A DNA stretch of 64,000 nucleotides from Escherichia phage vB_EcoM_G4507. Both the position numbers and the translations under genes were made by a program. Numbering within the stretch: the first letter of the stretch is position 1; every line of letters starts with the position of its first letter. The notes below the pieces were generated by a model, which was given only the letters and a program-made list of their open reading frames with translations, was not told where the DNA came from and did not search any database. This document shows positions 59,744 to 63,863 of the stretch, in pieces. The stretch is from the sequence record NC_054919.1. The stretch is one strand, 5' to 3'.

Positions 59744-62700
59744 ATGGCTACTTTAAAACAAATACAATTTAAAAGAAGCAAAACGGCAGGTCAACGTCCA
59801 GCTGCTTCAGTATTAGCCGAAGGTGAATTGGCTATAAACTTAAAAGACCGTGTACTTTTTACTAAAGATGACCAGGGAAATATTATTGATTTAGGTTTTG
59901 CTAAAGGCGGTAGTATTGACGGGAATGTTATTCATAAAGGCAATTATAACCAAACTGGCGATTATACTTTAAACGGTACATTCACCCAGACTGGTAATTT
60001 TAATTTAACCGGTATTGCTCGAGTAACTCGTGATATTATTGCTGCTGGGCAGATTATGACTGAAGGCGGAGAACTTATTACAAAAAGTTCAGGAACGGCA
60101 CACGTTCGTTTTCATGATTCCGCCGACCGTGAACGCGGTATTATTTTTTCTCCTGCTAATGACGGTTTAACTACACAAGTAGTTAACATCAGAGTTCAAG
60201 ATTACAAAGCTAGTTCAGAAAGCACTTTCGCTTTTAATGGAAATGGTTTGTTTTCTTCACCAGAAGTTTTTGGGTGGAAATCTGTATCAACTCCGGTAAT
60301 TTATACCAATAAAGTTATCACCAATAAAAAAGTTAAAGATGATTATGACATCTATTCGATGGCAGACAATGTTCCATTGTCTGAAAGCACTACTGCTATT
60401 AATCATCTTCGTGTTATGCGTAATGCAGTTGGTTCTGGTATTTTCCATGAAGTTAAAGATAATGATGGAATAACATGGTATAGTGGAGATGGATTAGACG
60501 CTTATCTTTGGTCATTTACTTGGAGCGGCGGAATTAAATCAAGTCACTCAATTTCCATCGGTTTAACACCCGGACCTAAGGATTACTCAATATTAGGACC
60601 GTCTAGTATCGCTTTAGGAGATAATGATACTGGATTTAAATGGCATCAAGACGGATATTATTTCAGTGTTAACAATGGCACAAAAACGTTTTTATTTAGT
60701 CCTAGCGAAACAACTAGCCTAAGAAAATTTGTAGCTGGGTATTCTACTAATGGAACCGATTTAACTACTCCTCCGACTGAAAACTATGCTCTTGCTACTG
60801 TCGTGACATATCACGACAATAACGCGTTTGGAGATGGTCAGACTCTTTTAGGATATTATCAAGGCGGTAACTATCATCATTATTTCCGCGGCAAGGGCAC
60901 TACAAACATTAATACTCACGGCGGTTTGTTAGTTACTCCAGGCAATATTGACGTTATTGGTGGTTCTGTTAATATCGATGGTAGAAATAATGCTTCTACA
61001 GCGATGTTTAAAGGTAACACAACAGGTAGTAGTTCTGTGGATAACATGACAATTTCTGTGTGGGGTAATACATTTACTAATCCTAGCGAAGGTAATCGCA
61101 AAAATGTCATGGAAATTTCCGATGCAACTAGCTGGATGAGCTATATTCAAAGACTTACTAATGGTGAAGTAGAAATGAACGTTAACGGTTCATTTGAATC
61201 ATCTGGTGTTACTGCTGGAAATAGAGGAGTTCACACAACAGGCGAAATTTCATCTGGAGCAGTGAATGCTCTTCGCATTTGGAATGCAGATTATGGAGCC
61301 ATTTTTAGACGTTCAGAAGGTAGTCTTCATATTATTCCAACTGCTTATGGTGAAGGCAAAAATGGTGATATTGGTCCACTTCGTCCATTTAGCATAGCTT
61401 TAGATACTGGTAAGGTTGTTATTCCAGATTTAGAATCAAGTTATAACACGTTTGCTGCAAATGGCTACATTAAATTTGCTGGTCATGGGGCTGGTGCCGG
61501 CGGTTATGATATTCAGTATTCACAAGCTGCTCCTATTTTCCAAGAAATCGATGATGCTGCTGTAAGCAAATATTATCCTATTGTTAAACAGAAGTTTTTA
61601 AACGGTAAAGCTGTCTGGTCTTTAGGTACTGAAATTAATTCAGGTACATTTGTTTTACATCATCTAAAAGAAGATGGTTCACAAGGCCATACATCAAGAT
61701 TTAATGCTGATGGTACAGTTAATTTCCCCGATAATGTTCAAGTCGGCGGCGGTGAAGCTACTATTGCTCGTAATGGTAATATCTTCTCTGATATTTGGAA
61801 AACATTTACTTCTGCCGGAGAAACCACAAATATTCGCGATGCAATAGCTACTCGTGTTTCTAAAGAAGGCGACACGATGACTGGTAAATTGACTTTATCA
61901 GCAGGCAATGATGCTCTCGTTTTAACTGCGGGCGAAGGTGCTTCATCACATATCCGTAGTGATGTAGGTGGTACAAATAACTGGTATATAGGCAAAGGTG
62001 GCGGCGACAGCGGTCTAGGTTTTTACAGTTACATTACACAGGGTGGTGTATACATAACAAATAACGGCGAAATATCGCTTTCTCCTCAAGGTCAAGGAAC
62101 ATTTAATTTTAATAGAGATCGCATTCATATAAATGGCACACAATGGACTGCACACCAGGGCGGTGGCTGGGGAAATCAGTGGAACCAAGAAGCTCCGATA
62201 TTTGTTGACTTTGGTAATGTTGGAAATGATAGTTATTATCCTATTATTAAAGGAAAATCTGGTATTACTAATGAAGGATACATATCTGGCGTTGATTTTG
62301 GTATGCGACGTATTACTAATACCTGGGCACAAGGTATTATTCGTGTAGGTAATCAGGAAAACGGTTCCGACCCACAAGCTATCTATGAATTTCATCATAA
62401 TGGAGTTCTGTATGTTCCTAACATGGTTAAAACCGGAGCGAGATTATCAGCTGGTGGAGGTGATCCGGTATGGCAAGGCGCATGCGTTGTTATTGGTGAT
62501 AATGATACTGGATTAGTTCATGGCGGTGACGGCCGAATCAATATGGTTGCCAATGGTATACATATTGCAAGCTGGGGAGCAGGCTATCAATCTCATCCTG
62601 GGCTTTGGGATTCAACCGGTGCTTTTTGGACAGAAGTTGGAAGAGCTATCGTTTCTCACGGGCATCTCGTTCAGGCAAATGATAGTTATTCAACGTTTGT

Positions 62701-63055
62701 CCGTGATGTTTATGTCCGTTCTGATATTCGTGTTAAAAAAGACCTCGTTAAATTTGAAAATGCTTCTGAGAAGCTTTCAAAAATTAATGGTTACACTTAT
62801 ATGCAGAAGCGAGGCCTAGATGAAGAAGGTAATCAGAAATGGGAACCAAACGCTGGGTTAATTGCTCAAGAAGTTCAAGCTATTTTACCAGAATTAGTTG
62901 AAGGTGACCCTGATGGCGAAGCTTTACTTCGTTTGAACTATAACGGTGTAATTGGTTTAAATACAGCTGCAATCAATGAGCATACTGCAGAAATTGCGGA
63001 ACTTAAATCAGAAATTGAAGAACTTAAAGCATTAGTTAAATCATTGTTAAAATAA
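59744..63055 (+). CDS. 37: long tail fibre distal subunit gp37 with C-terminal intramolecular-chaperone-like domain
   Basis: 1103 aa; N-terminus [35 protein letters not shown]; C-terminal ~120 aa (...[15 protein letters not shown]...[40 protein letters not shown]) resembles autoproteolytic tail-spike chaperone domains. Confidence 0.93.
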
Positions 63056-63060
63056 TAAGA

Positions 63061-63074
63061 GGGGCTTCGGCCCC
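63061..63074 (+). terminator. hairpin GGGGC-UUCG-GCCCC between genes 37 and 38
   Basis: 5-bp stem with UUCG loop; the ORF-track TTG start of gene 38 (63075) abuts it. Confidence 0.5.
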
Positions 63075-63086
63075 TTGGAGGTTTAT

Positions 63087-63863
63087 ATGGCAGTAACAGG
63101 ACCGTGGGTAGGATCGTCTGCAGTAGTTAATACAGGACAAAATTGGATGGGTGGTGCCGCGCAGAGATTGAGAATGGGAATTCCGTTTTGGATGAGTAAT
63201 ATGATAGGTCGATCTGTTGAAGTAATTCACACACTTGGAGCGGACCATAACTTCAATGGTCAATGGTTCCGAGATAGATGTTTTGAGGCAGGTAGTGCAC
63301 CTATAGTGTTTAATATCACTGGAGATTTAGTATCATATTCTAGAGATGTTCCTTTATTCTTCATGTACGGAGATACACCTAATGAATATGTTCAATTGAA
63401 TATACACGGCGTAACGATGTATGGTCGCGGCGGGAATGGTTGGGCTGCTGGAGCGATTGGAGCGTCTGACGGTGGTGTATGTATCCAAAATGATATAGGT
63501 GGACGTCTACGAATTAATAACGGGGGAGCTATTGCTGGTGGAGGCGGTGGCGGCGGTGGATATTCGCAAGCCAATAACTGGGCAGGAAAATACGTATGTG
63601 GAGGCGGCGGTGGTCGTCCATTTGGTTTAGGCGGAAATAATGGTGCTCGATGGCCTGGTGGAAATGCTAGCTTAACAGCACCAGGTGCTGGTGGTAATAC
63701 TGGTCAGTATTGGGCTGGCGGTGGAGGTGAAGTTGGTCAACCAGGTCAATATGCTAATCCAGGTAATGGTTATTCAACACCTCCGACAAATCCTGGTGCT
63801 GCTGTAGCAGGATCAGCTCCAACATGGCAAAACGTTGGAGCTGTATACGGTTCAAGAGTATAA
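63087..63863 (+). CDS. 38: gp38 receptor-recognising adhesin (T2/T6-type, glycine-rich motifs)
   Basis: Start set at ATG 63087 after GGAGG; 258 aa with poly-Gly tracts ([34 protein letters not shown]) separating variable segments. Confidence 0.85.

Follow-up and report, generated by a model that had tools for sequence, protein, structure and literature searches.

The distal long-tail-fibre genes of Escherichia phage vB_EcoM_G4507, analysed within a window of 64,000 nucleotides of one strand of sequence record NC_054919.1, very probably encode an AR1/PP01-like receptor-recognition module, in which gp37 carries a self-cleaving C-terminal chaperone and gp38 caps the fibre tip and binds OmpC. The analysis directly shows which genes these are, to which domain families their products belong, that the catalytic and docking residues are conserved and that the proteins are nearly identical to characterised ones, and nothing in the sequence contradicts this reading. 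The window belongs to Tequatrovirus, and its distal fibre genes follow the adhesin-capped ("T2-type") plan, with AR1/PP01 as their sequence subtype. The segment 59744-63863 consists of two plus-strand genes at the distal end of a T4-like long-tail-fibre operon:

59744-63055, plus strand: gene 37, long tail fibre distal subunit precursor, 1103 residues (open reading frame; PHROG 1699)
63087-63863, plus strand: gene 38, tail-fibre tip adhesin, 258 residues (PF21721 and PF05268; PDB 9V85 and 6F45_D; Shine-Dalgarno sequence GGAGG)

Both products are recognised by the PHROGs collection, gp37 as phrog_1699 ("long tail fiber protein distal subunit"; end-to-end match, E 0) and gp38 as phrog_2056 ("tail fiber protein; host specificity"; E 1e-108). 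The backbone around the fibre genes shares 96-97% identity with many Tequatrovirus genomes, and the gp37-gp38 segment is nearest to Shigella phage Sf23 and Escherichia phage AR1 (95.6-95.7% nucleotide identity, 100% query coverage). At the amino acid level, gp37 is 97.6% identical to its counterpart in AR1, 96.5% to that of Sf23 and 85.6% to that of PP01, and tblastn gives gp38 identities of 99.6% to Ec_O157kw, 99.2% to CAM-21, G157lw and KMB42, and 93.8% to PP01.

The C-terminal intramolecular chaperone of gp37

The C-terminal end of gp37 comprises two nested features, the second of which closes the protein:

62720-63052, plus strand: Peptidase_S74 intramolecular chaperone, gp37 residues 993-1103, 111 residues (PF13884; alignment with the S16 site; AlphaFold2 and Foldseek)
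62972-63052, plus strand: terminal heptad helix, last 27 residues of gp37 (heptads read from sequence)

A first-pass annotation of this DNA had likened a C-terminal segment of about 120 residues to autoproteolytic intramolecular chaperones and had proposed a profile search for the peptidase S74/chaperone-of-endosialidase domain as the check. That search is positive: Pfam PF13884 (Peptidase_S74) scores 48.4 bits at gp37 residues 993-1052, where 22 is the gathering threshold (E 1.1e-12), and the match takes in positions 1-57 of the 58-position profile; the segment itself measures 111 residues. In a PDB sequence search, gp37 residues 912-1103 align with the S16 gp37 construct (6F45_A) at an E-value of 5e-44, and the alignment places the cleavage-motif stretch of gp37 on S16 LNVSSDRRIKKD, with SDxRxK aligned. 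The N-terminal edge of the domain holds an intact S993-D-I-R-V-K998 (DVYVR^SDIRVKK), which is the S-x4-K arrangement of the family. The role of this Ser/Lys dyad is established for endoNF and T5 pb1.

The predicted fold points in the same direction. In an AlphaFold2 monomer model of gp37 residues 906-1103, built from a 21-sequence alignment, the chaperone part reaches block means of 88-96 in the predicted local distance difference test (pLDDT), with one block at 74, and ends in a 37-residue helix (model residues 161-197); the fibre-tip part is of low confidence, which is not surprising when a single chain of a trimer is modelled. In a Foldseek comparison with the PDB, the meaningful matches were limited to the MyRF ICA domain (7dc3; E 1e-5, probability 1.0), the chaperone of endosialidase (3gw6) and 3gud, which we take to be the GA-1 neck-appendage chaperone. 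The last 27 residues of gp37 form four heptads, with I, I, I and V at the a positions and H, L, L and L at the d positions, in agreement with the coiled-coil-like ending described in the first pass. Profile, Ser/Lys motif and fold thus all place the segment in the S74 family, and autoproteolysis is predicted from sequence and model, with cleavage at R992^S993, S993 as the nucleophile and K998 as the base, which would yield a 992-residue mature gp37 and the 111-residue domain.

On the evidence of sequence and predicted fold, the S74-like domain could instead be regarded as a non-cleaving relic that is retained on the mature fibre. This is very improbable: the Ser-x4-Lys motif is complete and its surroundings match those of the cleaved S16 site, and among AR1, PP01 and Sf23 the domain is conserved to about 99-100%, in contrast to the variable tip next to it. 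In S16, the last 113 residues of gp37 constitute an intramolecular chaperone that is autocleaved at DLNVS^SDRRIKK after trimerisation, and its release exposes the docking surface of gp38, which docks only afterwards (PMC7917993). Processing of T2 gp37, likewise at odds with a relic, has been demonstrated biochemically, and Trojet 2011 (PMC3157838, citing Drexler 1986) describes T2/T6 gp37 as cleaved and then capped by gp38. A self-cleaving chaperone is therefore the reading adopted here for the gp37 C-terminus.

The gp38 adhesin and its predicted docking surface

The first-pass annotation had also read gp38, with its poly-glycine tracts, as an adhesin, and family membership, docking residues and near-identity to PP01 gp38 all support this. 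The protein matches Pfam PF05268 (GP38) with 243.3 bits (cut-off 25; E 3e-72) and PF21721 (Gp38_N) with 75.3 bits (cut-off 25; E 4e-21), and its PDB matches are the sfGFP-fused receptor-binding domain of PP01 gp38 (9V85, E 3e-138) and S16 gp38 (6F45_D, E 4e-53), the latter over almost the whole gp38 length. Its layout consists of an attachment domain at residues 1-40, containing W7, W20 and W35, and a beta-helix plus polyglycine-II (PGII) sandwich with loops A-E at residues 45-258. Glycine accounts for 35% of residues 113-242, compared with 12% of residues 1-112, and occurs in runs of eight, five and four as well as in eight GG pairs; in gp38 adhesins such glycine-rich motifs form the PGII sandwich. 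The three tryptophans align with W7, W20 and W36 of S16 gp38, where the corresponding residues of the N-terminal helical bundle plug into the gp37 tip, and they are invariant in a five-phage alignment.

The surface that would receive these tryptophans lies immediately before the chaperone:

62477-62719, plus strand: mature fibre tip ending in DVYVR, predicted gp38 docking platform, gp37 residues 912-992 (aligns with the S16 gp37 tip, PDB 6F45 chain A)

By analogy with the S16 structure, this stretch is predicted to be the docking platform for gp38, and the homologues further suggest that gp37 would be cleaved here and that gp37 and gp38 would assemble in a 3:1 stoichiometry. Among close relatives, no other block of gp37 is as variable as this tip (83-88% identity).

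Variation is unevenly distributed along both proteins. It clusters in gp37 residues 900-1000 (62444-62743), where identity to AR1 and Sf23 falls to 83-88% versus 96-100% elsewhere, and also in the first 20 residues of gp38 (63087-63150, gp38 residues 1-21); from residue 22 on, gp38 is identical to that of Sf23 and Ec_O157kw. This pairing of a variable gp37 tip with a variable gp38 N-terminus fits the lock-and-key co-variation that Trojet et al. described for the docking interface. Between PP01 and T2, the subtypes of the gp38 N-terminal domain and the gp37 tip cannot be interchanged: PP01 gp38 works on T2 gp37 only once residues 1-113 have been exchanged for those of T2. Deletion of gene 38 in a T2-type fibre abolishes infection.

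Gene 38 occupies the position at which T4 carries the gene for its gp38 chaperone, and on positional grounds it could be supposed that gp38 is a T4-style assembly chaperone absent from the virion, with gp37 itself binding the receptor. The likelihood of this is vanishingly small. Among the families searched, gp38 matches those of adhesins (PF05268/PF21721), with no homology found to the chaperone of T4, and in its receptor-binding domain it is nearly identical to PP01 gp38, which binds OmpC directly. On its side, gp37 ends in an S74 chaperone and has no T4-type receptor-binding needle or head domain; its PDB sequence matches consist of S16 gp37 and gp34 chains, with no T4 gp37 tip chain among them. 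The first-pass contrast with T4 gp38 as an assembly chaperone only is in line with the literature. We infer from PP01 and S16 that gp38 of vB_EcoM_G4507, as an adhesin, is located in the virion and uses OmpC as its receptor.

Predicted receptor-binding loops compared with PP01

Loop definitions and contact data were taken from the PP01 structure paper, in which contacts between gp38 and OmpC were mapped by cross-linking and mutagenesis (PMC12892980). Alignment with PP01 locates the two loops of interest:

63696-63776, plus strand: gp38 loops D (residues 204-208, NTGQY) and E (residues 224-230, NPGNGYS)

The PP01 work (PMC12892980) reports cross-links from loop-D Gly208 and loop-E Tyr230 to loops 5 and 7 of OmpC, finds Tyr209 to be essential and gives Ala228 a hydrophobic contact. 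By analogy, loops D and E of this gp38 are predicted to contact OmpC. Residue-by-residue alignment with 9V85 reveals about six differences in the receptor-binding domain: loops A, B and C are identical in the two proteins, loops D and E hold the only loop differences, and S198A and I253V are found in addition. Outside this domain, the N-terminal 20 residues differ as well. The essential loop-D Tyr and the loop-E Tyr of PP01 are both kept.

Some observations weigh against a simple equation of this module with that of PP01. Loop D reads NTG-QYW here and NTGTGYY in PP01, making it one residue shorter, and the loop-E tip carries Asn in place of Ala228, so that the range of OmpC alleles recognised may differ from that of PP01. 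No NCBIfam model matches gp37 or gp38, which counts for little, being a feature of that library and not of the proteins. Judged from sequence comparison, the altered residues in loops D and E could shift the set of OmpC alleles recognised. The variant itself is already present in deposited phages, namely Sf23, isolated on Shigella, and Ec_O157kw, isolated on Shiga toxin-producing Escherichia coli O157.

A recurrent motif in the distal half of gp37

A short fibre motif is present twice in this part of gp37:

61499-61594, plus strand: repeat copy 1, gp37 residues 586-617 (ungapped self-match; hhalign; motif hidden Markov model, domain E 1.7e-20)
62162-62257, plus strand: repeat copy 2, gp37 residues 807-838 (ungapped self-match; hhalign; motif hidden Markov model)

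The literal elements each occur twice in gp37, APIF at 596 and 817, YYPI at 610 and 831, HH at 639 and 884, and GGG at 668 and 904, and the spacing from APIF to YYPI is identical in the two copies, which are offset by exactly 221 residues. The best ungapped self-match of gp37 pairs residues 586-617 with 807-838 (14 of 32 identical) and scores 76, compared with 41.0 +/- 4.3 and a maximum of 57 in 100 shuffles (z 8.1), and hhalign, applied to small alignments of each copy, returns an E-value of 7.5e-6 over 35 columns only. Detection is confined to Smith-Waterman or ungapped scoring and to profiles, which are shallow, the two homologous-protein searches having given 15 and 13 proteins; blastp of gp37 against itself yields no off-diagonal match. 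The HH and GGG elements contribute nothing measurable to the similarity. Taken together, these comparisons indicate that gp37 truly carries a fibre motif of about 35 residues in two copies.

The first-pass annotation had gone further and described an internal diverged duplication, of which the 32-35-residue core stands and the similarity beyond it sinks to noise level. A tandem duplication of a unit of about 221 residues (roughly residues 575-795 and 796-992) would account for the exact offset and the shared internal APIF-YYPI spacing, and the best gapped self-alignment, residues 473-736 against 677-951, scores 86, a value reached in 0 of 200 shuffles (54.8 +/- 8.2). The maximum of those shuffles is 85, the next gapped self-alignments (70, 68 and 65) fall inside the shuffle range, hhalign and blastp extend nothing beyond the core, and the same motif is found solitary in prophage fibres and in T2 gp37; duplication of the whole unit is for these reasons unlikely. 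Repetition of the short core is the reading retained.

Both motif copies are conserved in gp37 of AR1 and PP01. Elsewhere the motif is single-copy in several Escherichia coli prophage tail fibres, where it lies 90-176 residues before the S74 cleavage motif, and it is also present in T2 gp37 at residues 97-131, near the N-terminus (hidden Markov model of the core, E 2e-9). Since it stands alone in these proteins, it behaves as a small recurrent module. In the prophage proteins, annotated as "tail fiber domain-containing", the motif domain runs almost directly into the S74 chaperone, and these proteins lack the S16-like tip block of about 85 residues that is present in this gp37.

It is conceivable that the motif, GG[WY]..Q[WY].Q.APIF-x10-YYPI[IV]K at residues 586-620 and 807-841, marks two laterally exposed knob domains with a binding function of their own, an idea that we consider highly doubtful. 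If true, the knobs could, for instance, make a secondary contact with lipopolysaccharide or O-antigen independently of gp38, and the recurrence of the motif in T2 gp37 and prophage fibres would represent a mobile accessory receptor-binding module. An AlphaFold2 monomer of residues 560-992, built from a 16-sequence alignment, has a mean pLDDT of 43.8, too low for fold comparison, as expected for an interdigitated trimer.

Other gp37 domains, operon organisation and expression signals

Proximal to the repeated motif, gp37 carries a further recognisable domain:

60995-61426, plus strand: homologue of the gp34 C-terminal trimerisation domain, gp37 residues 418-561 (Pfam PF21446, E 4e-8 over residues 449-551; PDB 4uxe/5nxf)

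The PDB entries 4uxe and 5nxf, both T4 gp34, match residues 418-561 with an E-value of about 5e-13. The trimerisation domain at the gp34 C-terminus thus has a copy in gp37, and the proximal and distal half-fibres have this module in common. A 20-nucleotide direct repeat (60617-60636 and 62495-62514, 95% identity) encodes GDNDTG twice in gp37, at residues 292 and 917, and the second copy aligns within the S16 gp37 tip. Such short stretches of conserved DNA could offer recombination points from which mosaic fibres arise.

Further members of the operon flank the module on both sides:

54029-57898: gene 34, operon member
57907-59022: gene 35, operon member
59085-59735: gene 36, operon member

Downstream, the holin gene t starts at 63894, 31 nucleotides past gene 38 (MAAPRISFSPSDILFGVLDRLFKDNATGKVLASRV...), and continues beyond the end of the window. 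The synteny 34-35-36-37-38-t is common to this phage, PP01, AR1, Sf23 and T2. Gene 38 follows immediately 3' of the chaperone-ending gene 37, with 31 nucleotides between the gp37 stop and the gp38 ATG. Antisense open reading frames within genes 37 and 38 are presumably by-products of the G-rich, skewed coding strand. The gp35 hinge protein (57907-59022) matches Pfam ILEI/FAM3 (PF15711) at residues 58-112, above the cut-off (E 8e-8), a region known from earlier descriptions as the "GG domain", common to phage gp35 and human FAM3, POMGnT1 and CEMIP.

Candidate expression signals are spread along the operon:

53987-53994, before gene 34: exact match to the T4 late-promoter consensus TATAAATA
59026-59047, between genes 35 and 36: CUUCGG hairpin followed by a T run, terminator-like
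59054-59061, plus strand: exact match to the T4 late-promoter consensus TATAAATA, 24 nucleotides upstream of the gene 36 ATG
63060-63075, plus strand: intergenic CUUCGG-type hairpin AGGGGC-TTCG-GCCCCT, after the double TAA stop of gene 37 (read directly)

The octamer TATAAATA is over-represented in the window (18 matches versus 8.6 expected), and its occurrence at 59054 comes just after the terminator-like hairpin at 59026-59047. With its promoter role taken from knowledge of T4, the copy at 59054-59061 is the probable start of a 36-37-38(-t) late transcript, and the arrangement as a whole points to a T4-like division into two late transcription units, 34-35 and 36-37-38(-t). The hairpin at 63060-63075, listed on the minus strand by a terminator scan, may act as an mRNA stabiliser or translational coupler.

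The mechanically called open reading frame places the start of gp38 at a TTG codon at 63075, which overlaps the 3' end of this hairpin and has no Shine-Dalgarno sequence upstream; this start was rejected. The true start is the ATG at 63087, with the GGAGG Shine-Dalgarno sequence at 63077-63081. The Pfam Gp38_N profile begins at the Met of this ATG, and the annotations of gp38 in PP01, AR1, Sf23 and Ec_O157kw all use the equivalent codon.

Proposed mechanism and implications

The features described above can be combined into a working model of fibre maturation. In this model, gp37 would be made as an 1103-residue precursor whose C-terminal 111-residue S74 chaperone trimerises through its terminal coiled coil and thereby nucleates folding of the trimeric beta-helical fibre. 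The chaperone would then cut itself at R992^S993 through the S993/K998 dyad, uncovering a flat hydrophobic tip that ends in DVYVR and on which one gp38 monomer would dock by means of W7, W20 and W35 of its N-terminal helical bundle. Loops A-E, projecting from the polyglycine-II sandwich of gp38, would finally bind the extracellular loops of OmpC on Escherichia coli O157 or Shigella and so set the host range. The range of bacteria open to attachment by the phage depends on the gp37-gp38 module, which makes it relevant to phage typing, to biocontrol of Escherichia coli O157 and Shigella, and to host-range engineering.

Comparison with known systems

With T4, the phage shares the N-terminal part of gp37 and the organisation of the locus. 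T4 gp37 has a receptor-binding tip of its own and no S74 domain, and T4 gp38, an unrelated chaperone, is not present in virions.

The chaperone belongs to the same PF13884 family as those of endoNF (K1F), the GA-1 neck appendage and MyRF ICA (3GW6, 3GUD, 7DC3), with which it shares a predicted fold consisting of a small beta/alpha domain, a long C-terminal helix and a Ser/Lys autoproteolytic motif at its start. Identity to these proteins is 14-26%, and the domain is carried here on a tail fibre, whereas in those systems it is found on a tailspike enzyme or a eukaryotic transcription factor.

In T2 (LC348380), the same design and synteny are present, and its gp37, of 1341 residues, ends in NVYIR^SDIRLK followed by a chaperone of about 100 residues. 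The proteins themselves are far apart, at 49% identity for gp38 and about 31-33% for gp37, so that the first-pass assignment to a T2/T6-type module is accurate with respect to architecture and has to be replaced by AR1/PP01 with respect to sequence subtype.

Salmonella phage S16 (PDB 6F45; Dunne et al. 2018) displays the same architecture: a trimeric gp37 tip, an S74 domain cleaved before SDxRxK, and a gp38 with three tryptophans and glycine-rich motifs. The residue preceding the cut is Ser in S16 (DLNVS^S) and Arg at the predicted site here (DVYVR^S), the sequences are far more distant than those of the AR1/PP01 group, the hypervariable loops differ, and the receptor is Salmonella OmpC.

A close, structurally characterised relative is PP01 (PDB 9V85; mBio 2026, PMC12892980), a binder of OmpC from O157, whose gp38 has the same fold family as this one (beta-helix and PGII sandwich with loops A-E) and whose gp37 is six residues longer. 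Closer still are AR1 (AP011113, AF208841), Sf23, Ec_O157kw and CAM-21, in which gene order and gene lengths are as here and which differ by a few dozen substitutions, located mostly in gp37 residues 900-1000 and the first 20 residues of gp38; no identical record was found in the phage collection compared. Chaperone cleavage, the gp38 cap, the polyglycine-II fold and the OmpC contacts are covered by work on T2 (1986-87), S16 (2018) and PP01 (2026), and as this gp37-gp38 pair is a near-copy of characterised AR1/Sf23/PP01-type genes, conceptually nothing new, the system it represents is already known.

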